A DNA stretch of 64,000 nt from Acidobacteriota bacterium (lineage in GTDB: Bacteria > Acidobacteriota > Thermoanaerobaculia > Multivoradales > UBA5704). Shown piece after piece: positions 6,258 to 61,466 of the stretch. The notes under the pieces are model-generated. The model did no database searches. It saw nothing but the letters and a program-made list of their open reading frames with translations, and was not told the DNA's origin. Every line of letters begins with the position of its first letter. Position 1 is the stretch's first letter. Location of the stretch: the NCBI GenBank assembly GCA_040005235.1, contig JBDTZG010000017.1, forward strand, positions 1-64,000, in the 5' to 3' direction. Both the position numbers and the translations under genes were made by a program.

Positions 6258-6302
6258 CGGAGCGCGACGAGACTATAGGATCGGGCGGACGTGGAAAATG
6301 CG

Positions 6303-7679: not shown

Positions 7680-7812
7680 GTGCTTCCCCTCAGCAGGCAA
7701 TCTCCACCGATGGGTCGTAGCAATCCCCCTGGAACGTGTAGCCCGCCGGGCAGGCCAACAGGCGCGCCCCGTCTCGGGGAGGAAAAGCCCGCAGCTACGG
7801 TGCGGGCCGCGC

Positions 7813-10050: not shown

Positions 10051-10143
10051 CGGGTTCCTCTCGGCGAGAGGGGGCATTGTAGGCGAGAGCGGGGCCGGCG
10101 CGCCGCCCGCCGAAAGGCCCCATTCCTTCGCCGACTGTTCCGA

Positions 10144-12576
10144 CTATTCCGCGCGCAGGGCCGTCACGGGCGAGGTGCGGGTCGCCCGATAGGCCGGCAC
10201 GAGGGTCGCCACCAGGCCGGCGGCGATCAACAGGCCGGCGGCGATCGCGATCGAGCCGAGATCGAACGCCGACTGGCCGTACATCAGGCTCGACAGCTTG
10301 TCCGCCGCAAGCCTGGCGAACAACGCGGCGAGCCCGATGCCGACGAGCAACCCGACTCCGACCAGGAACATCGACCGCTTCGCGACCAGTCCGACGATAC
10401 CCCCGTGGCTTTCGCCGAGCGCCATGCGGATACCCAATTCGCGGCGCCTCGTGGCCACAGCGAACGCGAGCAGACCGTAGACGCCGATGAGGGTCAACAT
10501 CAGCGCGGCGCCGCCGAAGAAGCGCGACAGGGTGGAGGCCAGGCGCGACCGGACGAGCGAGTTGGACACCCTTTGGCTCATGGTTTCGATGTCCTCGACC
10601 GGCACTTGCGGGTCGAGCTCTTTGACCGCTTGGCGCAGGGCGCTCGAAAGACCTGCCGGATCGCCGCTCGTGCGCACGACCACGAACGCGAGCGCCGAAC
10701 CGGTCGCCGCGAACGGCCGGTAGAAGGCGGGCTCCGGCTCTTCTCCCAGGCTCATGTGGCGCACCGGGCGCACCACCCCGATGACCTCGACCGGGGCGCC
10801 GGGACCCTGTTCCTCTTCGTAGAAGCTCTTGCCCAGCGGGCTCTCTCCCGGCCAGAGCGCCTGAGCGAGCTTTTCGTCGACCAGGGCGACCCGCGAGCGC
10901 GGTTTCTCCTCGGCCGGAGTGAACAGCCGGCCCTGGACCAATGGAATGCCGAGGGCGGCGAAATAGCCGGACGAGGCGCCGCGGGATCCGGCGGGAAAGG
11001 GAGCGGCGCCGGCATCGCCGCCGACCGCGCGCAGGACGGCTACGTTGTTGTCCCCGACCAGCGGCAGCTGGGTCACCAGGCCCGCGGAGGTTGCGCCCGG
11101 CAGGCCGCGCAACCGCTCTTCGAGCGCGCCGAACCAGGCGGCGCTTTGCGCCGGTTCGGCGGCGATCCGCTTCGGCAAGAACAGCGGCACGGTGAGCGCC
11201 CCTTCGGAGCGGAATCCCGGATCGATCTTGTCGAGCCGCGCCAGGCTGCGGTCGAGGAGCGCAGACGCCGTGAGCACGGCGAGCGCGAGGCCCACCTGGG
11301 CGATCACCAGGCCCGCGCGCAGCGGCTGCCGGTCGCCGCCGCCGCTCCCCTTGCTCCCCTCCTTCAGCCGCTCGACCACGTCCACCCGAAACGCGCGGAC
11401 CGCGGGCGCCAGGCCGAACAAGAGGCCGGTCAAAACCGCGGCGGCGAGTCCGAACAGCAGCGCTCGGCCGGAGAATTCGACTCGCGCGATGACCGGAAAG
11501 ACCTGTTCGGGAATCGTCGCGAGGAGCGCCTTTAAAGCCCAAGATGCAAGCAGCACGCCGACCGCACCGCCGAGAAGGGAGAGCAGCGTGCTCTCGACCA
11601 GCAGCTGGCGGACGATCGCGCCACGGCCCGCGCCGAGCGCGGCGCGCAGCGCCATCTCGCGCTCGCGGGCGAGCGCCCGGGCGAGCAGCAGGCTCGCCAG
11701 GTTCGCGCAGGCGATCAGCAGCACGAGGGTTGCGGCGACCGAGACGAACAGCACCATCGCCTGGAACCGGCCGATCAACTCGGCCCGGATCGGCATCGAA
11801 ATCAGACGAAACCCGCCGTCCGGCGGGTAAGACTCGGGATGCTCGCGAACGAACCGTTGCGAGATCACCTCAAGCTCGCTGGGCAGCTTCTCGATCGAGG
11901 CGCCCGGGGCGAGGCGGGAGACGATCACCAGTCCCCGCGCGTTGCGCGGGGGCAGCGCCGAAAGGTTCATCGCGATCGGCACCCAGAGATCCTGGTTGGC
12001 CGAGAGCGCCCGAAAGCTCTTCGGCATCACGCCCACGACCTCATACGGCTTGTCGTCGAGCAGGATCTTCTTGCCGAGCACCTTCTCGTCTCTCTCGAAG
12101 CGGCGCTGCCAGAGCGACCAGGAGAGGATCGCCACCTGGTTTTGGCCGAGCACGTCTTCGGACTGGGCGAACGTCCGTCCGATCTCGGGCGGCACCTCCA
12201 GCAGATCGAACAGGTTCGCCGAGACGCGGCCGCAGTAAATTCGGGCCGGCTCGCCCTCGCCGGTCAGGTTGAGGGTGAGCGGAATGATCGCCGCGCTTTT
12301 GCCCAGCGATTTGGCCTGCTCGACGAGATCCAGGTATTCGTACCCCGAAAGCGGCGACCGGTCGATGCCGTCGCGAACGAACTGGCCGTAGATCGCCACC
12401 ACGCGATCGGCATTCGGAAACGGCGCGGCGCGCAGGATCAGCGTGTCGGCGAAGCTGAAGATCGCCGTGGCGGCGCCGACTCCGAGCGCCAGGCAGAGGA
12501 CGGCCACTGCGGTGAATCCGGGAGAACGGGCGAGCCCGCGCGCGGCGAGGCGGAAATCGCGAAGCAGAGATTCCAT
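10144..12576 (-). CDS. Duplicated MacB/FtsX-type ABC permease (ADOP-like orphan permease)
   Basis: DFRLAARGLARSPGFTAVAVLCLALGVGA, LVLLIACANLASLLLAR, RRRELGIRMALG, PVTALRAE; two periplasmic + FtsX halves; no ATPase gene adjacent. Confidence 0.9.
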   Translation of the reverse strand: MESLLRDFRLAARGLARSPGFTAVAVLCLALGVGAATAIFSFADTLILRAAPFPNADRVVAIYGQFVRDGIDRSPLSGYEYLDLVEQAKSLGKSAAIIPLTLNLTGEGEPARIYCGRVSANLFDLLEVPPEIGRTFAQSEDVLGQNQVAILSWSLWQRRFERDEKVLGKKILLDDKPYEVVGVMPKSFRALSANQDLWVPIAMNLSALPPRNARGLVIVSRLAPGASIEKLPSELEVISQRFVREHPESYPPDGGFRLISMPIRAELIGRFQAMVLFVSVAATLVLLIACANLASLLLARALAREREMALRAALGAGRGAIVRQLLVESTLLSLLGGAVGVLLASWALKALLATIPEQVFPVIARVEFSGRALLFGLAAAVLTGLLFGLAPAVRAFRVDVVERLKEGSKGSGGGDRQPLRAGLVIAQVGLALAVLTASALLDRSLARLDKIDPGFRSEGALTVPLFLPKRIAAEPAQSAAWFGALEERLRGLPGATSAGLVTQLPLVGDNNVAVLRAVGGDAGAAPFPAGSRGASSGYFAALGIPLVQGRLFTPAEEKPRSRVALVDEKLAQALWPGESPLGKSFYEEEQGPGAPVEVIGVVRPVRHMSLGEEPEPAFYRPFAATGSALAFVVVRTSGDPAGLSSALRQAVKELDPQVPVEDIETMSQRVSNSLVRSRLASTLSRFFGGAALMLTLIGVYGLLAFAVATRRRELGIRMALGESHGGIVGLVAKRSMFLVGVGLLVGIGLAALFARLAADKLSSLMYGQSAFDLGSIAIAAGLLIAAGLVATLVPAYRATRTSPVTALRAE

Positions 12577-39980: not shown

Positions 39981-40820
39981 ATGATTACCGCAGTCATCAG
40001 CAGGAAAGGCGGGGTCGGCAAGACCACGACGTCGGTCAATCTGGCGGCGGCGCTCGCCCTGTCCGGCCGGCGGGTCCTGCTGGTCGATCTCGACAGCCAG
40101 GCCTCGGCGTCGCTCTCGCTCGGGGTGCCGCGGGAGGAGCTGGCCCCCTCCTCCGCCGACGTGCTGCTCGGCGGGTTCCTGGCGAGCGAGGCGATCCGGC
40201 CGACGAAGGTCCCCGGTCTCGACCTGATCACCGCCTCGGTCGACCTGATCCACGCCGACCTGGAGCTGGGCCGCTACCGCTCGCGCGAGAGCCGGCTCAA
40301 AGGGGCGCTCGCGTCGGTAGCACCCCGCTACGACCTGATCTTCCTCGATTGCCCGTCGTCGCTCTCGCTCGTGCCGATCAACGCGATCGTCGCCGCCGAT
40401 GCGTTCGTGGTCCCCACGATGCCGCACTTCCTCTCGCTCACCGGGGTCACCAACCTGATCGCCGCCGCCCACCGGGCAAGCAACGAAGCCGGCGGCCGGA
40501 TCGTGCTTCTGGGGGTCCTCTTGACGATGGTCGATTACCGGATCAAATCGACCCGCACCCACGTCGAATCCCTCCGCGGCGAGCTGGGCTCGAAGGTGTT
40601 CGCGATTGAGATCCGAGTCAACAACCGCCTCGCCGAAGCGCCCGAGCACGGCCAATCGATCTTCCAATTCGATTCCAAAGCCAAAGGCGCCGCCGCCTAC
40701 CGCCTGCTCGCTCAGGAGTTCGTCCTCCGCGCCACCGACGCGGGCCGAAGGATCGCCGCCGAGATTCCCCGCCCGTCGGTCGAAGAGCCGGCGACGGAGG
40801 CGGTGACGCCGGGACGGTAA
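39981..40820 (+). CDS. ParA/Soj-family ATPase
   Basis: KGGVGKTT deviant Walker A, VDLDSQ, DCPSS, LAEAP. Confidence 0.92.
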   Translation: MITAVISRKGGVGKTTTSVNLAAALALSGRRVLLVDLDSQASASLSLGVPREELAPSSADVLLGGFLASEAIRPTKVPGLDLITASVDLIHADLELGRYRSRESRLKGALASVAPRYDLIFLDCPSSLSLVPINAIVAADAFVVPTMPHFLSLTGVTNLIAAAHRASNEAGGRIVLLGVLLTMVDYRIKSTRTHVESLRGELGSKVFAIEIRVNNRLAEAPEHGQSIFQFDSKAKGAAAYRLLAQEFVLRATDAGRRIAAEIPRPSVEEPATEAVTPGR

Positions 40821-40884
40821 GCGAGATCGGTCGATCGGAATTTCTCCCTCGTGGGAGCCTACTCTCCCGTTACAATCCTCGCCC

Positions 40885-41652
40885 ATGACCTTCAAAGATC
40901 ATTTCTCCGGCCATGCCGGCGCGTATGCGGCGCATCGTCCGGATCGGTATCCGGAGGAGCTGTTCGACTTCCTGGCCGGGCAGGCTCCGGGTTGCGGAGT
41001 CGCTTGGGACTGCGCGACCGGCAACGGCCAGGCCGCCATTCCGCTCGCCGAGCGGTTCGCCGTGGTGATCGCCACCGACGCCTCGGCCGAACAGGTCGCT
41101 CACTTCCGGCCTCATTCGCGGGTCGAGGTCCGCCAGACCCCCGCCGAGGCGAGCGGCTTGGCCGGCGGTTCGGTCGACCTGGTGACCGTCGCCCAGGCGA
41201 TCCACTGGTTCGACTTCGAGCGCTTCTACGCCGAGGTCCGCCGGGTTCTCCGCCCGGACGGCGTGATCGCGGCGTGGAGCTACAACCTCCTGCGCTCCGA
41301 TCCGGCGATCGATCGGGTGCTCGACTACCTGGCCGAGGAGCGGGTTTTCTCCTTCTGGCCCCACGAACGGCACTGGGTGAGCGAGGAATATCGGACTCTG
41401 CCTTTTCCCTTTCCCGAGGTTGCGGCCCCGCCGTTCACCATGACCGTCGAGTGGACGCTCGACCAGTTGCTCGCCTACGTCTCCACCTGGTCGTCGATCG
41501 TCCGCTGCCGGCGCGAAACCGGCCTCGACGCCCTGGCCGAAGTCGAACCCGACCTCGAAGCCGCCTGGGGCGGAGCTTCCGAGCGCGGTCAGGTGCGGAC
41601 TTTGAGCTGGCCGCTCCATTTGCGGTTGGGACGGGTGGAAGCGCGGTCTTGA
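40885..41652 (+). CDS. Class I SAM-dependent methyltransferase
   Basis: FKDHFS, WDCATGNGQAA, DLVTVAQAIHWF. Confidence 0.9.
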   Translation: MTFKDHFSGHAGAYAAHRPDRYPEELFDFLAGQAPGCGVAWDCATGNGQAAIPLAERFAVVIATDASAEQVAHFRPHSRVEVRQTPAEASGLAGGSVDLVTVAQAIHWFDFERFYAEVRRVLRPDGVIAAWSYNLLRSDPAIDRVLDYLAEERVFSFWPHERHWVSEEYRTLPFPFPEVAAPPFTMTVEWTLDQLLAYVSTWSSIVRCRRETGLDALAEVEPDLEAAWGGASERGQVRTLSWPLHLRLGRVEARS

Positions 41653-41670
41653 GGAACTAAACCGTCAAAG

Positions 41671-41697
41671 TTGCCTCATCGTCCGATCTGATATGTT
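41671..41697 (+). promoter_or_regulatory. Possible sigma70-type promoter of the ECF sigma gene
   Basis: TTGCCT at 41671 and an extended -10 TGaTATGTT at 41689-41697; favours the ATG at 41720 as start. Weak, by-eye call. Confidence 0.35.
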
Positions 41698-41719
41698 GTT
41701 GAGCAACCAAAGTTCGCAA

Positions 41720-42388
41720 ATGGATCGGGACGCCAATCTAGAAGCCGATGGCAGGCCGGAGTGGGAACTTGCCCTCCTCGGTGACGAGGGTGCGCTCGCC
41801 CGTCTGGTCCGTCGCCTCACGCCGGTGGTCCAGGCTCGCGTGGCCCGGAAGCTGTTGCTGTCCCGTGATCGCTCGGGTGGATCGCGCGACGTGCGCCAGG
41901 AGGTGGACGACCTCACCCAAGAGATCTTCCTGATCCTGTTCGCCGACGACGGCAAGGTGCTGCGCGGTTGGGACCCCGGGCGCGGCTTGTCTCTTGCGAA
42001 CTTCGTCGGTTTGGTCGCAGAGCGGCAGACGGTGTCGATCTTGAGGAGCGGCAGGCGCTCGCCCTGGCGCGACGATCCGACGTTGTCGGACGAGCTGGAA
42101 CGGATCGCCTCGCCGGTCGAGACCGAGACCGCCGCCGCCTCGCGCGAGGTACTCGGCCGGCTGTTCGACCGTTTGACCGAAGAGCTTTCTCCCCTCGGCC
42201 GCCGCCTGTTCGACCTCCTGCTGGTGCAAGAGACCCCCGTCGCGGAGGCGGTTCTCGCGACCGGACTTTCAGCCGACGCGGTCTACGCTTGGCGAAGCCG
42301 GCTGCGGCGTCTGGCGCGAAACCTATTGGCAGAATTGTCAGAACCGCCCCGGGAAGCGCGAACACCTGCTCGGGAGAGGACCCGATGA
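41720..42388 (+). CDS. ECF-type RNA polymerase sigma factor
   Basis: ALLGDEGALARLV, VDDLTQEIFLIL (region 2), LSPLGRRLF and region 4 HTH LATGLSADAVYAWRSRLR. Alternative start 41693. Confidence 0.85.
   Translation: MDRDANLEADGRPEWELALLGDEGALARLVRRLTPVVQARVARKLLLSRDRSGGSRDVRQEVDDLTQEIFLILFADDGKVLRGWDPGRGLSLANFVGLVAERQTVSILRSGRRSPWRDDPTLSDELERIASPVETETAAASREVLGRLFDRLTEELSPLGRRLFDLLLVQETPVAEAVLATGLSADAVYAWRSRLRRLARNLLAELSEPPREARTPARERTR
42336..42367 (+). promoter_or_regulatory. Putative ECF promoter, copy 1 (inside the sigma gene 3' end, upstream of anti-sigma/CHAT)
   Basis: T-GTCAGAACCG-ccccgggaagcg-CGAACACCT; same boxes and spacing as the copies at 46057 and 59345. Confidence 0.6.
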
Positions 42389-43296
42389 CAAGACCGATCG
42401 AGCCCGGAGCCGGAGCATCCGCTGGAGCCCCTATGCCCGGGGAGGACGACTCGCTCCTGCGCGAGCTGGGCGCTTGGGCACGCGACCGCGCCGCCGTGGA
42501 GCGCGAGCAGCTGGACGACCGCTGGGATCGCCTCGCGGCCGGCGCGCTCACCCCCGAGGAGGAGGCGGAGCTGCGCGCGGAGGCCGAGGGTTCGGCCGAA
42601 GGGGCCGCAGCGCTCGCTGCGTTTCAGCCCTTGGGACCGGAGACTGAGGCGCGGATCGTCGCCCAGATCCGGGCGCAACGGGCGGCGGAGCGGCCCGCCA
42701 AGCCGGCGATCGCCGCCGCTCGGCCGGTCGTCGCCGCGCCGTCCCCCAACGACCGGCCGAACAACGTCCTCCCCTTCCGTCGCCGCGCCGCCGTCTGGGG
42801 CGCCAGCCTGGGGCTCGCCGCGGCGGCGGTCCTGGTCGCGGTGCTGAGCCTTCCGGGACGCTCGGCGCCGCTTCCCGCGTATGTGGCGGAGCTCAAGGTC
42901 GGCGATCAAAACGACCGTAGCGGGACATCCGGCACCCAGCCGACCGGCGTCCCGACGTTTTCTCCCGGCGCGCGTTTCGAGCTGGTCCTGCGCCCGGCCG
43001 AGACCGTGAAGGGCGACGTGGCGGTGACCTGTCTATTGGTCGCGACCGGCGGCGGCCCGCCCCGGCCGTTCCCCGCTTGCGACGACGCCGAGCACTCGAA
43101 CGACGGCAGCCTGCGCGTCACCGGGACGGTCGGAAGCCAGATCGAAGGCCCGCCCGGCGATTGGACGCTTTGGGCGATCCTCGGTCGGCCGGGAGATCTG
43201 CCGAAAGATCCGCCGGTCACGAGCGTCGCGGAGCCGATCGCCGAAAAAGGCTGGATCGGGATCCCGCGACGAATCCGCTTCGCGGCGGCGGCGTGA
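42385..43296 (+). CDS. Putative single-pass membrane anti-sigma factor
   Basis: ATGA overlap with the sigma stop and GGAGAGG RBS; helical N-domain (WDRLAAGALTPEEEAEL), VLPFRRR then a TM helix (AVWGASLGLAAAAVLVAVL), then a beta-rich external domain. Confidence 0.7.
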   Translation: MTRPIEPGAGASAGAPMPGEDDSLLRELGAWARDRAAVEREQLDDRWDRLAAGALTPEEEAELRAEAEGSAEGAAALAAFQPLGPETEARIVAQIRAQRAAERPAKPAIAAARPVVAAPSPNDRPNNVLPFRRRAAVWGASLGLAAAAVLVAVLSLPGRSAPLPAYVAELKVGDQNDRSGTSGTQPTGVPTFSPGARFELVLRPAETVKGDVAVTCLLVATGGGPPRPFPACDDAEHSNDGSLRVTGTVGSQIEGPPGDWTLWAILGRPGDLPKDPPVTSVAEPIAEKGWIGIPRRIRFAAAA

Positions 43297-46037
43297 TCCG
43301 CCGGCCGATTCTCCTGGCCGCGGCGATCGCCGCGCTCGGCTGCTCCCGGCCGCCGTCGCCTTTGGCGGTCGAATACGCCGGTTGCTCCGAGGTCCTGCGC
43401 CAAGGGCCGACCTGCCTGCTCGAAGCGGGCAAAAAGGGGGCCTCCCCGCTCCTCACGATCTGGGTGCCGCTCGCGGCAGCGAATACCCCCACCGAAATCC
43501 GGATCGACGACCGGCCCGTTGCGGCGGAGGCTATGCCGGCTCGCGAGGGACACCGCTATTCGATCGAGGTCCCGCTCTCCTCACATCACCTAGAGGTCCG
43601 GCAGAAAAACCCCAAGGATACGAGCACCTGGTCGCTCGCACTCGCGCCGTTTCCGACGGAGCCGGCATGGTTCACCAACGCCCTTGAGCTCGCGCGCTCC
43701 GGAGAGCCGCAACCGACCGACCAAGCCCGGAAGATTCTTACCCGCCACCTCCCTACCATCTCCAACGCTGCGCTTCGCGCCCGCCTCTTTTGGATCCTCG
43801 CCCGCACTGCCCCCGTGCGCAACGCAGCGGACTTCAGGCGCGAGCTGGTGGCTCGCCAAAAAGCCGGCCATCTCCTCGGTGAGGCAACGGCCACCACAGG
43901 GTTGGCCCACCAACTCGCCGAGGACGAGCAGCTCGCCGAGGCATCCAAAGTCCTCGACGATTTGGTCCTTTCCCCCGCGCCTCCCGCCGAAGCGGCCTAC
44001 TTTGTCGCCTATGAACGCGGCCTGGTGGCGCGCCTTTCGGGTGAACCGCGGCAAGCCCTGCGGATGTTCGAAGCCGCGGCGACCGAGGCCGATCGGCTGG
44101 GTCTCGCCGCCAATCACGCCTACGTGGAGCAGCAGATGGCGTCCCTCTTTCTCGATCTCGGACGGTTCAAGGAGGCGGATGCCCGTTTCGCGGCGAACGC
44201 CGGGGCGCCCGGGGCCCCGAAGCTCGATCAGGAATGCGCCGCAGCGCAGCTGGACGCCAACCTCGGCTGGACCCGTCTGCTCGCCCGCGAGGCGGGCCTT
44301 GACGTGGGCGATCCGCTGCCTGCGCTCAAGGCAGCGCGCGATGCTTTCGACCGACTCACAGGATGCGGCGCGTCGCACCAGCGGGGCAACGCGCAGCTCA
44401 ATTTCGCGCTCGCCGATCTCCAAGCCGGCAGGCTCGACGACGCGGAGGCGGCACTCAAAAAAGCCCGCGCCCTCGCGACCACCCTGATCGCCGAGGAGCG
44501 GCTTTGGCAGAGCGAGATCGAAGCGCGGCTGGCGCTCGCCCGCAAGCGGCCGCGCGAGGCGCTCAAAATCTGGCAACTCTTGGAGGCCAACGCACGGAGC
44601 TCCAACTCGCTTGAAGATCTCTGGCTCGCGCTCACCGGCCGCGCTCGGACGGAGCGCGCTCTCGACGAACCCGACTCGGCCCTGCGCACGCTCGGCGAGG
44701 CGGAGGATCTCCTGGACCGCCAGGCGGCGACCGCTCAACGGTCCAGCCGAGCGCGTTTCGTGGCGCAGCGCGAGGCGAGCGCCCGGTTGCGCATCGAGCT
44801 GCTGCTTGAGAAGGGGCGACTGGCCGAGGCGCTTTCCGCCGCCCGCCGTTCCCGCGCCCGGGTACTGCGCCAGATCGAAACCGAAGGCCGGATCGAACGG
44901 CTCGCCGGACCGGAGCGCGAGCGATGGCAAGAGGCGGTTGGAGGCTTTCGCGCCGCGCGCCGGGACTGCGACGAGAAAGCCGCCAACGATTGGGCGGCAC
45001 CGGAGGACCGCCTGAAGATGATCCGCTCGGAGCGCGAGTCGCACTGCACGCAGGCCGAAGAGGATCTCGAAGCGGCGGTCGCCCATCTGGGCTTGAGCGC
45101 CACGACCGGCGCCTCCGAGAGCTTCCGGCCGCCCATCTCGGGCGAGTTGCTGCTCGCGTTCCATCCGTTGGATGACGGCTGGGTGGCGTTCGCGGAGGAA
45201 GGGACTGAAATATCCTTCCATCGCTTCGAGCTACCCTCCAGCGCGCTCGGCAATCCCAAAGATCTCGCCGCGCGGCTCTTCACGCCGTTCGCCGACGAGA
45301 TCCGGCGCGCCCGGCGGATTCGCCTGCTCCCCTACGGCTCTTTGCGCGAGGTGGATCTGCACGCCCTGCCGTTCGACGGCGCGCCGCTGCTCACGGGCCG
45401 GCCGGTGGTCTACGGTCTCGATCTGGTGAATCGGCCAGCCGTCGAAGCGTCCACGGAGACGAAACCCACCGCCCTGGTGATCGGCGACCCGCGTGGCGAT
45501 CTCCCTTTGTCCCGCAAAGAAGTGGCAGGAGTGGGAAGCGCACTGGCGGACGGCGGCTGGCAGGTCGACACGGAAAGCGGTGACGACGCCACGGTCAACC
45601 GGCTTCTCGAAGCGCTGCCGCGGATCTCGCTGCTCCATTTCGCCGGCCACGGGGTCGCGGGGAGCGCGGACGGCGGCGGCGAGCTGTTGTTGGGCGGCGA
45701 GGAGCGCCTGCTCGCGACCGAGATTCTGAACCTCAGCCGGGTGCCCGCACAGATCGTTCTTTCCGGCTGCGAAACCGGCCGCGCCGATCCAGGCGCCGCG
45801 GTCGAGGGGCTGGGCCTCGCCCAGGCGTTTCTGCTCCGCGGCGCCTCCCAGGTGGTCGCCGCGATCCGCACCGTCCCCGACGAAGACGCCGCCGCGCTGT
45901 TCGAGGCGTTCTACCGGCCGCCGCCGCGCGGCGCCTCCGATCTCGATCTCGCGAAGCGCCTCGTCCGGGCGCAGGCCGACGCGCTGCGTAAGAACCCGAA
46001 GAGCGCCGCGGTGAGCTTCCGCGTCTTCGAGCCCTGA
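43293..46037 (+). CDS. Lipoprotein TPR-CHAT domain protein (caspase-like cysteine protease)
   Basis: GTG overlapping the upstream stop; IRRPILLAAAIAALG-C lipobox-like signal; TPR-like helical repeats; LHALPF, VIGDP, LHFAGHG (His), VLSGCETG (Cys), GLAQAFLLRGA. Confidence 0.88.
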   Translation: MIRRPILLAAAIAALGCSRPPSPLAVEYAGCSEVLRQGPTCLLEAGKKGASPLLTIWVPLAAANTPTEIRIDDRPVAAEAMPAREGHRYSIEVPLSSHHLEVRQKNPKDTSTWSLALAPFPTEPAWFTNALELARSGEPQPTDQARKILTRHLPTISNAALRARLFWILARTAPVRNAADFRRELVARQKAGHLLGEATATTGLAHQLAEDEQLAEASKVLDDLVLSPAPPAEAAYFVAYERGLVARLSGEPRQALRMFEAAATEADRLGLAANHAYVEQQMASLFLDLGRFKEADARFAANAGAPGAPKLDQECAAAQLDANLGWTRLLAREAGLDVGDPLPALKAARDAFDRLTGCGASHQRGNAQLNFALADLQAGRLDDAEAALKKARALATTLIAEERLWQSEIEARLALARKRPREALKIWQLLEANARSSNSLEDLWLALTGRARTERALDEPDSALRTLGEAEDLLDRQAATAQRSSRARFVAQREASARLRIELLLEKGRLAEALSAARRSRARVLRQIETEGRIERLAGPERERWQEAVGGFRAARRDCDEKAANDWAAPEDRLKMIRSERESHCTQAEEDLEAAVAHLGLSATTGASESFRPPISGELLLAFHPLDDGWVAFAEEGTEISFHRFELPSSALGNPKDLAARLFTPFADEIRRARRIRLLPYGSLREVDLHALPFDGAPLLTGRPVVYGLDLVNRPAVEASTETKPTALVIGDPRGDLPLSRKEVAGVGSALADGGWQVDTESGDDATVNRLLEALPRISLLHFAGHGVAGSADGGGELLLGGEERLLATEILNLSRVPAQIVLSGCETGRADPGAAVEGLGLAQAFLLRGASQVVAAIRTVPDEDAAALFEAFYRPPPRGASDLDLAKRLVRAQADALRKNPKSAAVSFRVFEP

Positions 46038-46055
46038 ACGGCTTTTTTCTACCCC

Positions 46056-46087
46056 GGTCAGAAACGAGCCCGGCCCGGCGAAGACCT
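46056..46087 (+). promoter_or_regulatory. Putative ECF promoter, copy 2 (upstream of subtilase 1)
   Basis: G-GTCAGAAACG-agcccggcccgg-CGAAGACCT, intergenic; CGAA starts 65 nt before the ATG at 46144. Confidence 0.65.
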
Positions 46088-46143
46088 CTGCCGTGCGCCC
46101 CTCCTTAAACCCAAGCGCCTTTCTTGTTTCGGGGAGCCAGATC

Positions 46144-48150
46144 ATGTTCGGTCGGTTTCAACAGCCATTCGCGTTTCGATGCCTCGCCGCCGGCCTTGTC
46201 CTCATCCTCGCCTCGGCCTTGGCATCGGGGGAGTTGCAGGCCGCCAAGATCTCCTTCCGCCCCTCCAACTACGGCCTCCCCCCGGGAGGTTGCTCCGACC
46301 GGTACTGGGTGGCGCTCGCCGACGGAGCGGGTCTGCCGGCTTCGGTCTGCCCGACCGTCGAAGGTTGGAGAAAGGAATTTCTGTTCAACGCAAACCTCAG
46401 AAATCTCAACGGACCGCGCTTTTGCCGCTATTTCTGGAATCCACCGATCTCCAAGACCGAAAGAGGCGAACCGGGTATGCCGCCTCTCCTCTTGGCCGAC
46501 ATCGCGAGGTTGCAGGCCACGGAGCATCTCCACGGCACGGTCCGCCGCTGCGGCGTCCTCGGAGCTTCCGGCACGACGCTCGCCGAGCGCAATCAGGAAG
46601 TGATGTTTCGCGAGTTTCGGTTCCAGACGGGAGATACGGACCTGCCCTTTCTGACCGCGTCGTCCGATGTCCGGTTGGCCGTCCTCGACACCTATCCGAC
46701 CGGGGATTTCCCGGCTAAGGAAAAGGACCCGGTCGTCTGCAAGACCGGCCACGGCTTCGCGATCGCCCACCTCATCGAGGAGTTGATCTGCGACGGCAGC
46801 GGGGGCGAATTCAAGGAATGCGCCGCGGCGATGACCGGCCGTCTCGCCCTACCGCTCGGCGGGCCGGGGTCCGGATCGCTCGATCAGCCCGATCCTCCGA
46901 TCGGGTCGGGTTGCGGCGGATACGGCAGCCCGCTCGATCTCGCGCTCGCAATCCGGGACGAGGTCGCGGCATGGAAGAAGTCCGGCATCCGGCATCTGGT
47001 GCTCAATCTTTCGGTCGGTTGGGATTCAAACCTGCTGCACAAAGGCCTCGGTGCGGAAGCCGCCGATGGTCTGAACGCCGAGGAGCTGAGCGTCTACGCG
47101 GCGCTCCGAAACGCCGCGGCCCAAGGCGCTCTTTCCATCGCCGCCACCGGGAACGGCCAGGGGGTGGCGCTGTCGGAAACCGGCCCGCTGCTCCCCGCCG
47201 GCTGGTACGCCAAACCGCCGACCATCGCGCTGCTGGCGCCGGTTCCCTTGACGACGATCGACCCGGTGGTCTGGCCGATCGGGGCGACCGATCGCAACGG
47301 CCAACCGCTGGGCAATGCGCGACCGGGCGCCGAGCCGCCGCTGGTGGCTTACGGCGATCACGCGACGGTCAAACTACTCGGCGACGGCTGGACCGACCCG
47401 CTCACCGGCAGCTCGGTGGGAGCCGCGGTCGCTTCGTCGCTCGCCGCCCTCGCTTGGCGCTTTCAGCCGGCGCTCGAACGCCAGGAAGTCATGGAGATGC
47501 TGGCGGCCTCCGCCACCCCCCTGGTGCGAGACGCCGCCTATCACCGCAACCCGAGCCAGAGTCCGCCCAGGGTTCGGAGGCTGTCGGTCAACGCCCTCTT
47601 GAGCCGCGCCTGGAGCCCACCGAAAGTGCTCGCCACTCCTCCCACCTCAGGCCAGACGACGGTCGACTGCGCGGGCGGAAGCTGGATCCCCACGACCGCC
47701 GGGCCTAAGCTCTATAGCTGCCCGGGAACCGCCGTTCCTGCCCAAGCCTCGGCCATGCCACTGCTGACGCCGCTCGGCGCGGTGCCCTGGGTACAAACCC
47801 AACCGGGAGCCAACGCCTGCCCCAGCTGCTCGCTCGGAGGCGGCGGCGGCGGGATGCTGCGCGGAATCCAGACGCCGAAACAGATCGACCTGCGACTCGA
47901 AATCCCACCGGACTGGAACCCCCAGCTCCAGCTCACCGATCTCTGGATCGAGGCTTCGGATGCTCAAGGAGCCAAGACAACCGTCTGGATCGGCAAGCCG
48001 GCTAAGCTGCTCGCCCCGAACGACTCGATCCAAGTCCAGAGCCTCCCCTTCCCGCGCGACCTCCGAGCGGCCGTCCTGTCCGCCCGGGTCAAAGTCGGGC
48101 CAAAGGATTACTCGCTGCGCATGCCGATCTACGTCGACCCGGGGGAATAG
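46144..48150 (+). CDS. Secreted S8 (subtilisin-like) serine protease, paralog 1
   Basis: Signal peptide; VRLAVLDT (Asp), GHGFAIAH (His), VLNLSVGW, AATGN (oxyanion Asn), LTGSSVGAAVAS (Ser). Confidence 0.8.
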   Translation: MFGRFQQPFAFRCLAAGLVLILASALASGELQAAKISFRPSNYGLPPGGCSDRYWVALADGAGLPASVCPTVEGWRKEFLFNANLRNLNGPRFCRYFWNPPISKTERGEPGMPPLLLADIARLQATEHLHGTVRRCGVLGASGTTLAERNQEVMFREFRFQTGDTDLPFLTASSDVRLAVLDTYPTGDFPAKEKDPVVCKTGHGFAIAHLIEELICDGSGGEFKECAAAMTGRLALPLGGPGSGSLDQPDPPIGSGCGGYGSPLDLALAIRDEVAAWKKSGIRHLVLNLSVGWDSNLLHKGLGAEAADGLNAEELSVYAALRNAAAQGALSIAATGNGQGVALSETGPLLPAGWYAKPPTIALLAPVPLTTIDPVVWPIGATDRNGQPLGNARPGAEPPLVAYGDHATVKLLGDGWTDPLTGSSVGAAVASSLAALAWRFQPALERQEVMEMLAASATPLVRDAAYHRNPSQSPPRVRRLSVNALLSRAWSPPKVLATPPTSGQTTVDCAGGSWIPTTAGPKLYSCPGTAVPAQASAMPLLTPLGAVPWVQTQPGANACPSCSLGGGGGGMLRGIQTPKQIDLRLEIPPDWNPQLQLTDLWIEASDAQGAKTTVWIGKPAKLLAPNDSIQVQSLPFPRDLRAAVLSARVKVGPKDYSLRMPIYVDPGE

Positions 48151-48268
48151 AGGGCGCGGATGATCCCGTGGGGGCCGTCGACGACCTGGATGCCTCAGAC
48201 AGGGCTCAGAACCGAGGCGGCCCAAAACATGCCCGTTTCGGGTATAGTTTCCGGAGACGACTTCGACG

Positions 48269-48643
48269 ATGAGCATCTTAAAGCGCAAGGACTTCGCCCG
48301 GTGGCAGGCAGGCGAGAAGCTTCCGGATACCTCCTTATGCAAGGCCGTCGAGGAGATGGAAAGCGGCCTGATCGACGCTGACCTGGGCGGCTACCTCTAC
48401 AAGAAGCGCGTGGCTCGCCCCGGCGCAGGTAAGAGCGGTGGTTATCGGACGGTGCTCTCAGCCCGGATCGGTAACCGCTACGTGTTCCTCCACGGCTTTG
48501 CGAAGAGCGACAAGGCCAACATCACGCCCGACGAGAAGAAGGCCCTGAAGTTCGCCGGCAAGGTGTTTCTGGATCTCCCGCCTACAGACCTGGCGAAGGC
48601 AGTAAAGGCGGGCGTATTAATGGAGGTGCATTGTGTCCAGTAA
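48269..48643 (+). CDS. Type II TA toxin, RelE/ParE superfamily (HigB-like, toxin-first)
   Basis: GLIDADLGGYLYKKRVARPGAGKSGGYRT, HGFAKSDKANIT. Confidence 0.88.
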   Translation: MSILKRKDFARWQAGEKLPDTSLCKAVEEMESGLIDADLGGYLYKKRVARPGAGKSGGYRTVLSARIGNRYVFLHGFAKSDKANITPDEKKALKFAGKVFLDLPPTDLAKAVKAGVLMEVHCVQ

Positions 48644-48938
48644 GCTGATTGAATCTTTGCGCGGCGACCTCGCCGAGCTGCAGAAGGCGGGCGTCATCAG
48701 TAAGGTGACGATGCGGCAGTTCGACTCGATCTGCCCGCCACCAGTACGAGAGTTCAGCGCAGACGACATCAAACGACTGCGCGAGAGACTGCAATTCAGC
48801 CAACCGGTGTTCGCACACCTTTTGCACACGACGGCATCGACGGTGCGCAAGTGGGAACAGGGCGACACGAGGCCCGCCGGGCCAGCCCTGAAGCTGCTGA
48901 ACGTCATCGCTGACAAGGGCCTGGAAGCCGTCTTGTAA
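48633..48938 (+). CDS. XRE-family HTH antitoxin (HigA-like)
   Basis: IKRLRERLQFSQPVFAHLL, TVRKWEQGDTRPAGPALKLL; overlaps the toxin gene. Confidence 0.88.
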   Translation: MSSKLIESLRGDLAELQKAGVISKVTMRQFDSICPPPVREFSADDIKRLRERLQFSQPVFAHLLHTTASTVRKWEQGDTRPAGPALKLLNVIADKGLEAVL

Positions 48939-49550: not shown

Positions 49551-50252
49551 TTATTCTGTCCGCGCTGCGGTTACCTCCAGCCGATAGCCAATGCCCGCGG
49601 CGGAGAGCAGATAGCGCGGCTCGGCCGGTTGGGTTTCGATCTTCTGGCGCAGGCGGTGGACCAGCTGCTTGAGCGCCTGGCGGTCGCCGGAGATCCGGTC
49701 GCCCCAGACGTGGCGTAGGAGGCGTTCGAAGGGGAGGTCACTGCCGGCGTTGGCTGCCAGCAGTTGGAGCAGACGAAATTCGAGCCGGGTGAGGCGCACC
49801 GGCTCGGCACCGGCCACCTGGACGCTTTGGCCTTCGGCGTCGATCAGCAGTTCGCCTACCGATAGCGGCTGGGGGCGTTCGGCTACCCCTGAGCGGCGCA
49901 GCAGGGCGCGGACTCGGGCGAGTAGGGTGCGCGGGCTGAAGGGTTTGGCGAGGTAGTCGTCGGCGCCGAGGTCGAGGCCGCGCACCTGGTCTTCTTCCGT
50001 GCCTCGCACGGTGAGCATGACGATCGGGATGGCCGAGGTTGCCGGGTTCGCGCGCATTCTTCGACAGACCTCGAAGCCGTCAAGGCGCGGCAGGTTGACG
50101 TCGAGCAGAACGAGGTCCGGCCGCTCGAACTCGGCCATCAAGAGCGCAGCGGCTCCATCCTCCGACTCGATCACGAAATAGCCGTCGCGGCGCAGGGTAT
50201 AGCCGATCAGATCGCGCAGATCGGGATCGTCGTCGACCACCAGGATCTTCAT
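49551..50252 (-). CDS. OmpR/PhoB-family response regulator
   Basis: ILVVDDD, LLDVNLP, GADDYLAKPF, winged helix LTRLEFRLL...GIGYRL. Confidence 0.95.
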   Translation of the reverse strand: MKILVVDDDPDLRDLIGYTLRRDGYFVIESEDGAAALLMAEFERPDLVLLDVNLPRLDGFEVCRRMRANPATSAIPIVMLTVRGTEEDQVRGLDLGADDYLAKPFSPRTLLARVRALLRRSGVAERPQPLSVGELLIDAEGQSVQVAGAEPVRLTRLEFRLLQLLAANAGSDLPFERLLRHVWGDRISGDRQALKQLVHRLRQKIETQPAEPRYLLSAAGIGYRLEVTAARTE

Positions 50253-52253
50253 GCCGCGGCCCCTTCCCTACCGGGAGGTATGCCCGTCGCGATCGGCAGG
50301 GTAAATGAAAAGCGCGCCCCCCGTTCCCGCGAGATCGCCGCGACCTTGCCGCCGTGGCGTTCGACGATCGAGCGGACGATCCACAGGCCGAGCCCCATGC
50401 CGGTCTCCTCCGGTTCTCCCTGCGTTTCGGGCTCCGCTCCTGCCGTCGTCTGGCCGGGAAAGCGCCCGGGGATGCGAACGAAGCGGGCGAACAGATCGTC
50501 CGGCGATCCGGGCGGCAGGCCGGAGCCTTCGTCCTCTACCCAGAGGCGAAGCCGCTCTGGCTCGGTCTCCCCGCCGATCGTGATCGTCGAGCCCTCGGGG
50601 GCGAATTTCTGGGCGTTGGCGAGCAGGTTCACCATCACTTGGGTCAGGCGCTCGGCGTCGCCCTCGATCCGTGGCAGCGGAAAGGGCAGCTCGATCGACA
50701 GCCGCTGGCGCCGCCGTTCGAACAGAGGCGCGGTCAGCTCCGCGGCCTGCTCGACCACCTCGTCGAGGGCGACGGGGCTCCGGCGGATGCCGTCCTCCCC
50801 CGCCTCGATGCGGACGCTTTCGAGCAGGTTGTCGATCAGCCGGGTGAGCCGCAGCGCCCCCCGTTCGAGCGACGCGGCGAGCTGCCGCGCCGGCTGGTCG
50901 CCAGCTCGTCCAGGCGCTCGCCGAGCAGCTCCAGCGAGGCGAGCTGCGCCGCGAGCGGCGTTTTGAATTCGTGGGAGACGTTGGCGAGCACAGCGTCGCG
51001 CAGCCGGCGCGAGGTCTCGTCCCCGGTTTCGTCGCGGATCACCTGAAACTGTTGCTCCTCGGCCAGCTCCGAGCTGGTGATGACAATCACCCGCTTGCCC
51101 CCGTTCCGGCGCAGCGACTCGGTCGCCCGCGCGCCGCCGCGGAACCGGGCGTGGATGATCGGGCAGTGCTCTTCGCACGGCCGGACGCCGTTTTCCCCGA
51201 TCGGCAGGAGCACGTCGCCGCAGAAGCGGCCGATCGCCGCTTGAGGATCAACTCCGAGCAGCGCGGCGGCCTGCGGGTTCAGGTAGCGGATGCGCCGGTC
51301 GCGATCGACCGCGAACACCCCGTCGGCGATGCCGGTCAACACCGCTTCCGCCTCCGCCTGGCGGCGGCGCAGCTCGGCGGTGAGGTGGGAGAGCCGGCGA
51401 CGCATTTCTTCCATGGTCGCGGCGAGCGTGCCGACCTCGGCGGTCTCCCCCCGCGCGGCCTCGGGAATCGGACTGGAAAAGTCGCCCCGGCCGATCCGCG
51501 TCGCGGCCCGATCAAGCGCCTGGATCGGGCGGGCGATCCTGCGGCCCAGAAGGAGGCCGGAGAGCATCGCAAGCGCCGCGACGCCGAGCGCGAGCAGCAG
51601 GAAGCGCCTTTCGAGCTGATGCAGCGAGAGGGCGACCTCGCCGCGCGGCAGTGCGGTCTCAATCGTCGCGGCATGGCCGGCGGCGGCGAAGATCTGGCGC
51701 GAAACATAGCGCTCGCCGTCACGCACGGTGCCGTTGGCATCCGCCGGCCTCGCGGAGCGAAGTACAACCGGCAGACCCACCTGCGCGGCGATCCGGTCGG
51801 AAAACTTCGAGTCCAGGGCGAGAGCGGTGGCGACCGTAGCACCCGGCACGGCGACGATCGGCGCCGAACCGATCAACCGCAAGACCGCGGAGAGAGCACC
51901 GGCCCGGCCGAGGCGAACGGCTTTCCCCCGGCGATAACCGCGCAGGCGGTGAGGCCGCTCGTCGAGCGAAAGCGCTCCAGAAATACCGCGAGACCGGCGG
52001 CGTCCCCCTCGCGCAGCAGGCGCGCGGCGGTCGGCCGTTCGGCGAGCAGGCGGGCGGAGGTGCGGATGTCCTCGGCCGAGCGTTCGACCGCCTGGCGCGC
52101 GCTGATCCCCGCGAGCGCCACCCGGGCGAGCGCCTGTTCGTCCGCCAGCCGGTCGAGCAGGCGGACGGCGGCGAGCGCGATCGCCAGGACCGCGAGCAGG
52201 ACGAGGATGGCGTTTCCGCCGACGAGGAGAGTGCTGAGGCGAATCCGGCGCAT
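50249..52253 (-). pseudogene. HAMP-PAS sensor histidine kinase split by two frameshifts (pseudogene or sequencing error)
   Basis: Three consecutive frames: TM/sensor N-terminus (52253 to ~51890), TM-HAMP-PAS-H box VSHEFKTPL (~51890 to ~50900), HATPase NLLANAQKF, DEGSG, GMGLGL (~50900 to 50249). Confidence 0.8.
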
Positions 52254-59343: not shown

Positions 59344-59374
59344 TGTCAGAAACGCGCTCTCCGCAACGAAACCC
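59344..59374 (+). promoter_or_regulatory. Putative ECF promoter, copy 3 (upstream of subtilase 2)
   Basis: T-GTCAGAAACG-cgctctccgcaa-CGAAACCC, intergenic; CGAA starts 66 nt before the ATG at 59433. Confidence 0.65.
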
Positions 59375-59432: not shown

Positions 59433-61466
59433 ATGTTTACCCGCACCCGCTGGTTCACCCTTCTTGCCCTCGTCCTGACAACGGCCCCGAGCCTTGCGGA
59501 CGAGATCTCGCTGGATCGTTCCCCCACAATGCGCGCCTGCTATACCTTCCGAAGCAATACCGAAGGGTACGACCTCGGCGCGCTCTTCCGCTCGAAGATC
59601 AAGGTCGGCGACGTTGCGGTGGTCGACAAATATTCCTGCTCCAACCGCCTCTGGCTCGCCCTCTCCGACGGCCCGACCTGCCCGAAGGTGGACGGCTGGA
59701 ACACCGCCTCGCTGTTCGGAGCCAGCCCGGCGCGCCGTCAACCGGGCCACCCCATCCGCTCGTTCTGCCGCTACGAAAGCCCCCGGAGTCCTTCCGGTTG
59801 CGCCATTGCGGCGCTTCAGGCGGAACCCAAGCTCCACGCCCTGGTCCATCGCTGCAACGTAGTCGAGGAGATCGCCACCGCCGAACCGGCCCGGCCGTCC
59901 AAAATCAACCTGGAACCGGAAGGCGCCTCGGCCCAGCTCGATGAGCTTCAGAGCTCAGAAATGGCGAGAAATTTCCTCTACGAAGTCGGGGCAGCCGATC
60001 TGCCGCATCCGGACCGCGAAGAGTCCAACGTCCGCTTGACTGTTCTCGACACGGTCGCGACCGGCGACGGGGCACCGGACAGCCTGCCCGCCGGCTGCAC
60101 CAACCATGGCTTCGGCCTCGCCCACATCGCCCAGAAGCTGACTTGCGACGACAAAGGTTGCGCCGCGGCACTCGGGACTCAGCTCGCGCTGCCGCTGTTG
60201 GATTCCGGCGGACGGGCGGTGGACGCCAGGTCGAATTGCGGCAACTCCGGCACTCCGGGAGACGTCGCGGTAGCGATCCGCGCCGCGGTCGACCGTTGGC
60301 TCGCGCTTCCGGGCGACCCGAAGAAGAGGCCGCACCTGATTCTCAATCTGTCGCTCGGATGGGATCCGAAAGTGCTCCACGAGCAACTCGGCGCGATCGA
60401 CCCCGAAGACCATCTGAACGCCGAAGAGCTGGCGGTCTATGACGCCCTCGCCTACGCCGCCGAACAGGGAGCGCTCACGATCTCGGCGGCCGGCAATGCG
60501 TTCGGCGGACCGACTCCCGAGCTGGGCCCCACCCTCCCCGCCGGTTGGTATGCCCACCCGCCGGAGGTATCACTGCTCCCTCCCAGCGACGACACGGTGA
60601 TCTGGGCGGTCGGCGGCGTGGCCCGCGGCGGCCAGCCTTTGGCCAACTCCCGGAAATTCTCCGAGCCCGGGCTGGTCACCTACGGCGATCACGCGGTGGT
60701 CAAGCTGCCGAAAGGGGGCTACACCCAACCTCTCACCGGCACCTCAGTCTCGGCGGCGGTCGCCTCGTCGGCCGCGGCGGTCGTTTGGCATTTGCGTCCC
60801 GAACTGTCGGGACGCGAGGTGATGGAGCTGCTTTCGAGCTCGGGGTCCGATCTCGGCCGCGGCGCCGTGCTCTACCGGAGCCACGGTACCGTCGACGCGG
60901 CCAAAGAGGCACCGCCCGGCGTCCGCCAGCTCGGCCTTTCGGCCGCGCTTCGAGCCGCGCTCGCACCGAAGGTGGCGTTGGCAAAGATCGAAGAAAATCG
61001 GATGGGCTGTCATTTGGTTCAGGTTCCGGCCGAGAAAGTTCCCGCCGTCTGCGCCAAGCGGACCTATTACACCTGCGACGGCGTGCCGCCGAGCTGCACG
61101 GCCGACGCGCTGCCGCCTAGGCCGGTGGCCGGCGGGGTGAGCACCCAGCCGGGGGCGAATCCCTGCCCCTCCTGCTCGCTCGGCGGCGGCGGCGGCACCA
61201 CGGCGGCGCTGCAGATCGAAATCGACTCCGACTGGCCGAACGGCTGCCTGACCGATCCAATGCTGGAGATCGAAACGCCGGACGGAACGAAGTTCGGCAT
61301 CCCGATATTGCTCGAAAAGCCGCTCTGCCCGAGCGACCAACTGATGGTCGACGATCTCGACCTTCCGACCTCGATCGCCTCGGCGCGGATCAGCTTCAAA
61401 TACGCCGAGGAGAGCTACTCGGTTCAAAGCACGGTCCAGATTTTGACCCAAACGGGGACCAAGTAG
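59433..61466 (+). CDS. Secreted S8 (subtilisin-like) serine protease, paralog 2
   Basis: AGGAG RBS; signal peptide; VRLTVLDT, NHGFGLAH, ILNLSLGW, SAAGN, LTGTSVSAAVAS; colinear with 46144-48150. Confidence 0.82.
   Translation: MFTRTRWFTLLALVLTTAPSLADEISLDRSPTMRACYTFRSNTEGYDLGALFRSKIKVGDVAVVDKYSCSNRLWLALSDGPTCPKVDGWNTASLFGASPARRQPGHPIRSFCRYESPRSPSGCAIAALQAEPKLHALVHRCNVVEEIATAEPARPSKINLEPEGASAQLDELQSSEMARNFLYEVGAADLPHPDREESNVRLTVLDTVATGDGAPDSLPAGCTNHGFGLAHIAQKLTCDDKGCAAALGTQLALPLLDSGGRAVDARSNCGNSGTPGDVAVAIRAAVDRWLALPGDPKKRPHLILNLSLGWDPKVLHEQLGAIDPEDHLNAEELAVYDALAYAAEQGALTISAAGNAFGGPTPELGPTLPAGWYAHPPEVSLLPPSDDTVIWAVGGVARGGQPLANSRKFSEPGLVTYGDHAVVKLPKGGYTQPLTGTSVSAAVASSAAAVVWHLRPELSGREVMELLSSSGSDLGRGAVLYRSHGTVDAAKEAPPGVRQLGLSAALRAALAPKVALAKIEENRMGCHLVQVPAEKVPAVCAKRTYYTCDGVPPSCTADALPPRPVAGGVSTQPGANPCPSCSLGGGGGTTAALQIEIDSDWPNGCLTDPMLEIETPDGTKFGIPILLEKPLCPSDQLMVDDLDLPTSIASARISFKYAEESYSVQSTVQILTQTGTK

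Follow-up and report, generated by a model that had tools for sequence, protein, structure and literature searches.

A conserved ECF sigma factor, anti-sigma-like, TPR-CHAT and S8 peptidase cassette of Acidobacteriota as a candidate split trans-envelope proteolytic switch

How could a signal in the periplasm reach a sigma factor in the cytoplasm if the protease that relays it and the membrane protein that restrains the sigma factor are encoded by separate genes? The question is raised by a contig of an Acidobacteriota bacterium of the class Thermoanaerobaculia (GenBank assembly GCA_040005235.1, contig JBDTZG010000017.1), the first 64,000 nucleotides of which, hereafter the window, were analysed. 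Four genes on the forward strand of the window span positions 41720–48150 and encode a sigma factor of the extracytoplasmic function (ECF) type, a membrane protein, a lipoprotein in which tetratricopeptide repeats (TPR) are joined to a CHAT domain, and an S8 (subtilisin-like) peptidase (Table 1). The original prediction, made from the sequence of the window, was of a proteolytic signalling system acting across the envelope. The reading favoured here, to which a probability of roughly 0.55 is assigned, is a trans-envelope ECF sigma switch resembling DdvS/DdvA of M. xanthus, with inhibitor and protease on two polypeptides.

The gene content foreseen by that prediction, including the secreted S8 peptidase and the chained overlaps between genes, was recovered in full, all four open reading frames (ORFs) and both overlaps lying where they had been placed. 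The sigma stop codon overlaps the ATG start of the membrane protein gene in the ATGA at 42385–42388, and the stop codon of the latter overlaps the GTG start of the CHAT gene in the GTGA at 43293–43296; in silico, translational coupling thus links the sigma factor to the membrane protein and the latter to the CHAT lipoprotein. A gap of 106 nt separates the CHAT stop codon from the S8 start codon, ATG 46144. GTG 46093 was considered as an earlier S8 start and rejected as probably not the true one; ATG 46144 is preferred for its GGGGAG Shine–Dalgarno sequence, the onset of the signal peptide and its agreement with the starts of homologues.

The arrangement is widely shared among soil Acidobacteriota and Myxococcota. 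When one genome per species was scanned, the CHAT protein had 263 relatives, from which 79 loci were retained for gene-order analysis, performed by tblastn with both paralogue sets of the window's genome (a 6.2-Mb assembly of 140 contigs). By title, 56 of these loci belong to Acidobacteriota (Thermoanaerobaculia, Holophagales or the phylum only), 20 to Myxococcota/‘Deltaproteobacteria’, including Pyxidicoccus, Sorangium and Polyangium, and three to other or unclassified organisms. The order sigma, anti-sigma, CHAT, S8 on one strand is found in 49/79 loci. Among the 64 well-flanked loci (upstream flank of 2 kb or more, downstream flank of 2.6 kb or more), all four genes are present in 43, only the S8 gene is missing in 11, and other parts are lacking in the remaining 10. 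Overlaps of 4 nt, as judged from automatically called starts, link sigma to anti-sigma genes in 28/47 loci and anti-sigma to CHAT genes in 21/47. Contig C104 of the same genome carries another cassette with this gene order (approximately 5489–11729; L002/L006), the proteins of which are 28–54 % identical to those of the first by tblastn; two to three paralogues per genome are found. On the evidence of gene order, conserved as the original prediction had anticipated, the four genes are a real module, above chance.

The sigma factor is divergent. As a single sequence it matches TIGR02937 over residues 26–200 (E 5.8e-8) with 32.5 bits, below the cut-off of 42.9, and its matches to the Pfam models of regions 2 and 4 are weak. 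However, a profile of 54 family sequences matches the solved ECF sigma factor 9isn_F (E 2.9e-8, positions 8–198), and because this match extends over the full length, the gene product is accepted as a divergent ECF sigma factor. Residues of regions 2 and 4 are conserved across 62 sequences, and the protein has the two-domain sigma2 plus sigma4 build and the matches to ECF models by which such factors are recognized.

The second gene product has no match in Pfam, NCBIfam or the sequences of the PDB, a profile search of the PDB likewise gave nothing meaningful, and no consistent Pfam family, zf-HC2 included, was found in any of 49 members of its family. It contains one hydrophobic span at about 134–155, preceded by RRR, and its topology is single-pass with the N terminus inside. 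In the structure model (predicted local distance difference test, pLDDT, 79.8) five cytoplasmic helices (21–102) are followed by a linker, the transmembrane span, a strand (166–171), a loop and an immunoglobulin (Ig)-like sandwich (190–300). A Foldseek search with the whole model returned only Ig-like/NPC2-like folds, which concern the ectodomain. Residues 1–133 contain neither His nor Cys. The strand is modelled confidently, while the loop that follows, which lies just outside the membrane, is modelled with low confidence and contains Arg178 (codon 42916–42918), a residue invariant in 49/49 and in 57/57 family sequences. The family is large, counting 3284 representatives (at 50 % identity) with a threshold of E <= 0.001 and 612 when this is tightened to 1e-30, and patchy within the class, being found in 8/201 sampled genomes and 7/81 genera.

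The membrane protein is likely to be the membrane inhibitor, or anti-sigma factor, of the neighbouring sigma factor. If it were not, the cassette would be an operon of exported proteins that happens to lie beside a sigma gene, and the failure of the protein to match any anti-sigma family would be in keeping with this. Such an explanation is highly improbable, given that the gene overlaps that of the sigma factor by 4 nt in 28/47 loci, that its product is an N-in, single-pass protein, that a sigma-type promoter precedes it at a fixed distance, and that in locus L070 an ectodomain of this family occurs on one chain with a classical anti-sigma domain of the HxxxCxxC kind.

The third gene encodes the presumed caspase-like protease. 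Its CHAT domain is recognized by PF12770 (E 1.8e-28), and the protein carries a signal peptide with a lipobox-like Cys17. A lipobox pattern was found in 40/76 CHAT and 26/57 S8 proteins, crude counts affected by miscalled starts and some false matches that are to be read only qualitatively. The model (pLDDT 85.5, predicted template modelling score 0.81) comprises a beta-sandwich (27–119), a TPR solenoid (125–598) and the CHAT domain (610–914), and Foldseek ranks it closest to Csx29 (8eey_B, E 7.7e-15), DdvA (8rot_A, E 1.5e-13 over 885 columns, with a TMq of 0.39) and separases. At the sequence level only Csx29 is matched, and weakly (E 0.002). The dyad formed by His786 (45648–45650) and Cys826 (45768–45770) is invariant in 20/20 CHAT relatives; this dyad and the Asp/His/Ser triad of the S8 peptidase had both been described as intact, and the residues are indeed present and invariant among relatives.

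Natural fusions provide the best evidence that the ectodomain works as one unit with the TPR-CHAT protein, and that the second gene is an anti-sigma gene. In two Acidobacteriota loci, anti-sigma-like and TPR-CHAT sequences are joined in frame (L080:7044–10523, 1159 amino acids; L070:1614–5108, 1164 amino acids), and neither fusion has a lipoprotein signal. The L070 fusion bears the cytoplasmic HxxxCxxC of classical zinc anti-sigma factors and is encoded after a canonical ECF sigma gene and before an S8 gene. Among the best 150 representatives of the membrane protein family, three are 1156–1249 amino acids long and end in a CHAT domain. Structure prediction, one of the checks proposed with the original prediction, added weak support only. 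For the paralogous pair of C104 (CHAT residues 36–861 with ectodomain residues 128–266), modelled with custom alignments, the complex score was 0.50 (runs 0.44, 0.50 and 0.53), the best control gave 0.00, the runs agreed in at least 60 % of contacts, and the partner pLDDT was at least 73. The mark applied to such scores was reached by 58/80 solved complexes and 2/110 mismatched pairs; those reaching it with scores of 0.60 or less comprised only seven of the 80 solved complexes and both mismatches. Together with the fusions and the invariant Arg loop, this weak prediction makes it plausible that CHAT cleaves the ectodomain loop of the anti-sigma factor.

The fourth gene product is an atypical S8 peptidase. 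It scores 27.7 bits against PF00082 (cut-off 21.8), covering only profile positions 113–276, and matches the NCBIfam mycosin model in part (E 7e-13). Asp182, His203 and Ser424 are each conserved in 57/57 sequences and the oxyanion Asn288 in 54/57, so ordered as in the S8 family, and all its neighbours in the protein atlas are S8 peptidases. Behind its N-terminal signal peptide lies a conserved Cys/Trp-rich region of some 140 amino acids, in which a Pfam search found no I9 or fervidolysin-type prodomain.

This N-terminal region could need processing, and it is one reason to consider an alternative. Here CHAT would join the ectodomain of the anti-sigma factor in a sensor complex but act on some other substrate, for example the precursor of S8 or a foreign protein of the periplasm, and the anti-sigma factor would lose its activity through a different protease or a change in conformation. 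The invariant dyad is tied to the anti-sigma loop by conservation alone, and dyad mutants of DdvA were silent in unstimulated cells (PMC11506125). On the other hand, in the fusions, as in DdvA, a single polypeptide holds both the CHAT dyad and the Arg loop, and the 11 well-flanked loci that keep the sigma, anti-sigma and CHAT genes lack a nearby S8 gene, which argues that S8 is not an obligatory CHAT substrate. This alternative is rated as rather unlikely, and cleavage of the anti-sigma loop by CHAT is retained as the preferred reading.

What the sigma factor would control is indicated by a promoter-like motif. The spacers between CHAT and S8 genes of 48/61 loci share cTGTCAGAAA-N14-GCGAAg at fixed spacing, and in the window the core bipartite motif TGTCAGAAA-N14-GCGAA precedes the membrane protein/CHAT pair, the S8 gene and an S8 paralogue (sites P2, P3 and P4 in Table 1). 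A position weight matrix was built from the 48 spacer sites, among which that of the window was not included. Over the whole genome and both strands it gave only four matches of at least 18 bits, three of which are P2, P3 and P4. P3, the best of the genome, lies 20 nt past the CHAT stop codon and about 60 nt ahead of the S8 start. The core pattern occurs three times in the window against 0.46 expected, and 0/100 shuffles reached three. Transcripts would be expected to begin about 7 nt past GCGAA. In the 79 loci, matches of at least 16 bits number 51 in CHAT–S8 spacers, 37 just upstream of the anti-sigma gene, and one upstream of the sigma gene; the 45 others lie mostly downstream of S8, on the strand of the operon.

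Sites of the P2 type, which are outside the training set, were found in 38/53 loci, and in 28 of the 38 the GTCAG lies exactly 48 nt before the ATG. As P2 falls within the 3′ end of the sigma gene, it was considered whether it is a by-product of coding for a conserved ‘ELS’. This was rejected: both the −10 element and the spacing persist in L023, L024, L027, L043 and L051, where the sigma ORF stops inside the promoter, and conservation therefore acts on the site as DNA rather than on what it encodes. A variant −10 element, GCAAA, is common to both sites of the C104/L039 subfamily. Such a variant is as expected if each cassette's own sigma factor reads its sites, and suggests that the two switches of this genome are mutually insulated.

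The S8 paralogue behind P4 is a predicted member of the regulon, and its orthologue in L014 also has the motif. At other loci the same predicted promoter precedes a canonical S8 peptidase that has a fervidolysin-type prodomain, a papain-like peptidase, a protein with an FTP motif and transthyretin-like proteins. In five loci the promoter motif stands, downstream of S8, before members of a protein family of about 705–780 amino acids with a conserved N-terminal ‘NPNYFGN’ motif (Table 1); the one member scanned (L044) has no Pfam match, and the family was not found in the window's genome. The fourth genome-wide match (C8 139334, 21.0 bits) precedes an 827-amino-acid Ser/Thr kinase with a membrane span (ORF from 139407), which may be a regulon member or a chance match; in L085 a kinase likewise lies behind a motif match. 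In L057, L060 and L074 (Myxococcaceae, Pyxidicoccus) the S8 gene follows CHAT almost directly and has no motif of its own, so that its co-transcription would begin at the site ahead of the anti-sigma gene.

The motif was not found before the sigma gene of the window, in line with the single such case among the 79 loci, and its absence there points to feedback on the regulators only, with no positive autoregulation. The original prediction that the sigma factor induces the subtilases and its own regulators fits the sites before S8, the S8 paralogue and the anti-sigma–CHAT pair. Basal transcription of the sigma, anti-sigma and CHAT genes would presumably start at a housekeeping-type promoter, while induction of the anti-sigma and CHAT genes and of the S8 genes would depend on the sigma factor. 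TATAAT, with at most one mismatch, precedes the sigma gene in 29/57 related loci, compared with 1.06 % of random 75-nt windows. In the window itself, a conserved AT-rich element, TGATATGTT, lies at the same place, and CTGATAT within it is kept in the five closest loci (L011–L016); it is possibly the extended −10 of a housekeeping-type promoter. The ATG embedded in the element, ATG 41693, was rejected as a start of the sigma gene, because in L014 it is lost whereas the surrounding DNA element is retained, and it is thus not a start codon. Between the putative −10 and the start codon of the sigma gene (41700–41720), a short conserved leader (GAAAGTNCG...) was also noted, with counterparts at the equivalent place in L028, L029, L032, L044, L061, L071, L073 and L087. 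A simple sigma-70 promoter scan of 41400–48500 gave no sites, and terminator-like sites in the same interval numbered five against 5.3 expected.

Table 1. Features of the cassette and of its predicted regulon; coordinates are those of the window except where a locus is named
Feature	Coordinates	Strand	Basis or remark
Divergent ECF sigma factor, 222 aa	41720–42388	+	TIGR02937 and family profile
Single-pass membrane protein, anti-sigma-like, 303 aa	42385–43296	+	Structure model, family conservation
TPR-CHAT lipoprotein, 914 aa	43293–46037	+	PF12770, structure model, Foldseek
Atypical S8 (subtilisin-like) peptidase, 668 aa	46144–48150	+	PF00082, conserved triad
S8 paralogue, 677 aa, 39 % identical to cassette S8	59433–61466	+	tblastn; NCBIfam mycosin model E 3e-14, partial
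Conserved AT-rich element TGATATGTT	41689–41697	+	About 25 nt before sigma ATG
P2, GTCAGAA-N-GCGAA, predicted promoter	42337–42362 (matrix match 42334)	+	20.4 bits; in sigma 3′ end, 48 nt before anti-sigma ATG
P3, GTCAGAAA-N-GCGAA, predicted promoter	46057–46082 (matrix match 46054)	+	27.6 bits
P4, same motif before S8 paralogue, predicted promoter	59345–59370 (matrix match 59342)	+	18.3 bits
Weak hairpin and T-run, terminator-like	46029–46044		Just after CHAT; terminator scan
‘NPNYFGN’ family members	L035:7683–9800, L044:7911–10250, L047:12415–14718, L071:12374–14680, L087:15880–18123		

The promoters bear on a further possibility, namely that S8 is itself the site-1 protease, with CHAT in the role of guard or co-inhibitor that RseB plays towards RseA; induction of S8 by the sigma factor would then give positive feedback. 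S8 is the most constant predicted target of the sigma factor, as the 51 spacer matches indicate, and it is exported to the same compartment. This is nevertheless improbable: S8 would be needed before induction, yet the sole recognizable S8 promoter is the one predicted to depend on the sigma factor; cassettes without S8 exist; and a mere guard would need no invariant His–Cys dyad.

The mechanism that best combines these observations is one in which CHAT is the site-1 protease. The cytoplasmic helical domain of the membrane protein would hold the sigma factor, while its Ig-like ectodomain would dock the TPR-CHAT lipoprotein in the periplasm. A signal in the periplasm, most likely a peptide or protein to which the TPR solenoid binds, would activate the His786/Cys826 dyad, and CHAT would then cut the flexible juxtamembrane loop at or near Arg178 (site 1). 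An RseP-type M50 protease would complete the cleavage and free the sigma factor; M50 site-2 protease genes are present in the genome, the best on C82 with 225 bits, and this second proteolytic step appears feasible. The freed sigma factor would induce the secreted peptidases of the S8 family, as well as additional peptidases in other genomes. It would also raise the levels of the anti-sigma factor and CHAT and so reset the switch, a negative feedback without positive autoregulation.

Several points weigh against this scheme. All its steps are ones that we infer. The cytoplasmic domain that would hold the sigma factor, devoid of His and Cys, matches no anti-sigma family, and the S8 gene or other parts are missing from 11 and 10 of the 64 well-flanked loci, respectively. 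The upstream region of the window's own sigma gene has no near-consensus TATAAT and, by the simple scan, no full sigma-70 promoter. The complex score falls in a band that is more often wrong than right unless the pairing is likely beforehand, and it was obtained for the C104 pair and not for that of the window, with no interface reported. Finally, in the closest precedent, DdvA dyad mutants were like the wild type in unstimulated cells, and signal-induced self-cleavage was not seen (PMC11506125). A more specific version of the scheme is possible rather than probable. In it, TPR-CHAT would be a site-1 protease of caspase fold, gated by a ligand, and would cleave an anti-sigma factor encoded separately at the invariant Arg loop within a feedback-only circuit with exported peptidases as its output, and would serve predatory, proteolytic soil bacteria as a periplasmic sensor for foreign or substrate proteins.

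The precedent in M. xanthus deserves a closer comparison. DdvA is an anti-sigma factor fused to a periplasmic TPR-CHAT region, and its authors propose signal-induced self-cleavage followed by RseP; enzyme and substrate are on one chain, and the signal is unknown (PMC11506125). The cassette resembles DdvS/DdvA in that an ECF sigma gene is followed by a single-pass anti-sigma factor and a periplasmic TPR-CHAT with a His–Cys dyad (PMC6061681; PMC11506125; PDB 8rot, 8rw5), and in the proposed logic, which leads from signal to CHAT, to a cut in the juxtamembrane linker and to RseP. The fused relatives in L080 and L070 share the DdvA architecture itself. In the window, by contrast, the anti-sigma and TPR-CHAT proteins are encoded by separate genes and CHAT is a lipoprotein, fused forms being confined to relatives. 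Further differences are that the cytoplasmic domain lacks the CHCC zinc site of DdvA, and that the cassette has an Ig-like ectodomain as well as an N-terminal beta-sandwich on CHAT. The cassette proteins gave no sequence-level match to DdvA. The promoters of DdvS are described as GTAA-N16-CGT, one of them before its own operon (PMC6061681), whereas the cassette motif is GTCAG-N17-CGAA and its sigma factor is predicted not to be autoregulated. As described in PMC11506125, leaving its table S7 aside, DdvA-like proteins are reported only from Myxococcota and one Comamonas.

DdvA–DdvS controls a defence island (PMC11506125), which raises the question of whether the cassette is an alarm against phages or competitors that works by the same mechanism, with a phage or foreign-protein signal and proteases as effectors. 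Its patchy spread (8/201 genomes, 7/81 genera of the class) and its multiple paralogues per genome would suit such a role. The chance of this is nonetheless slim. None of the four proteins matched a PADLOC defence family except for a weak, partial match of CHAT to BovA (E 3e-5), and the neighbouring genes are those of ParA, a methyltransferase and a RelE-like protein. The predicted regulon consists of S8 and other peptidases and of proteins without a known family, and not, as for DdvS, of cyclic oligonucleotide-based antiphage signalling (CBASS) or clustered regularly interspaced short palindromic repeat (CRISPR) systems.

The statement that accompanied the original prediction, that no characterized system with this exact layout was known, has to be qualified by two precedents, the DdvA fusion and ECF54. 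For ECF54, a subtilase/CHAT gene context has been noted and proteolytic control proposed from synteny alone (PMC8999054, citing Huang 2015 and Casas-Pastor 2021). The cassette shares with it an ECF sigma gene with conserved subtilase and CHAT neighbours. According to the published descriptions, however, ECF54 is actinobacterial, lacks an anti-sigma factor and is without a clear regulator (PMC7826278, the main text of which does not mention CHAT, although its supplements may list the context), whereas the cassette occurs in Acidobacteriota and Myxococcota and includes an anti-sigma-like gene. An unannotated gene of this type could have been overlooked in ECF54. In the full-text literature on CHAT/ECF/anti-sigma, CHAT/subtilase/sigma and ECF54, no description of the split cassette was found, although supplements may list it, and none of the listed papers on ECF54 was experimental.

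The craspase system, invoked in the original prediction as an analogy, is related by its logic: Csx29, a TPR-CHAT protease, controls a sigma factor (CASP-sigma) by cutting its inhibitor Csx30, but it is cytoplasmic, RNA-guided and bound to Cas7-11 (PMC10028731), whereas the protease of the cassette is predicted to be exported. The analogy holds at the level of the fold, through the match to 8eey_B, and fails at the level of the family, the Csx29 model NF041237 giving only 14.1 bits against a cut-off of 300. The partner proteins have no PADLOC match, and CRISPR arrays were not searched for in the window. A likeness also exists to systems of the RseA–DegS–RseP type, given the single-pass anti-sigma factor, the periplasmic site-1 cut postulated here and the M50 site-2 protease genes of the genome. 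In classical regulated intramembrane proteolysis, the site-1 enzyme is of the DegS/PrsW type; that of the cassette would be an operon-encoded caspase-fold cysteine protease.

The genes around the cassette show no sign of belonging to it. Genes for a ParA-like ATPase and a SAM (S-adenosylmethionine)-dependent methyltransferase lie directly upstream (39981–41652, + strand), and an OmpR-type response regulator and a histidine kinase are encoded downstream on the opposite strand (49551–51178, − strand). Immediately after S8, a RelE-family toxin gene (PF06296, E 1.6e-43) and an overlapping small ORF are found at 48269–48643 and 48633–48938 (+ strand); the small ORF could encode the partner of the RelE-like toxin.

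In summary, the most suitable reading of the module is that of a DdvS/DdvA-type switch in split form, equipped with a hidden family of likely anti-sigma factors, a promoter of defined sequence and a predicted regulon of peptidases. New elements are the set of predicted ECF-type promoters with fixed spacing, the invariant juxtamembrane Arg and the natural anti-sigma/CHAT fusions. Since the enzyme, its substrate loop (Arg178) and the read-out promoters (P2 and P3) are separate and predicted, the question posed at the outset reduces to a simple co-expression and mutant experiment, and the split form makes cleavage of the inhibitor by CHAT directly testable. If the more specific, ligand-gated version holds, TPR-CHAT would be the first CHAT protease to act in trans in regulated intramembrane proteolysis. 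Since the large family of anti-sigma-like proteins is unannotated, giving it a name would benefit the annotation of numerous soil genomes, and the family may account for ECF groups that have been described as lacking an anti-sigma factor.

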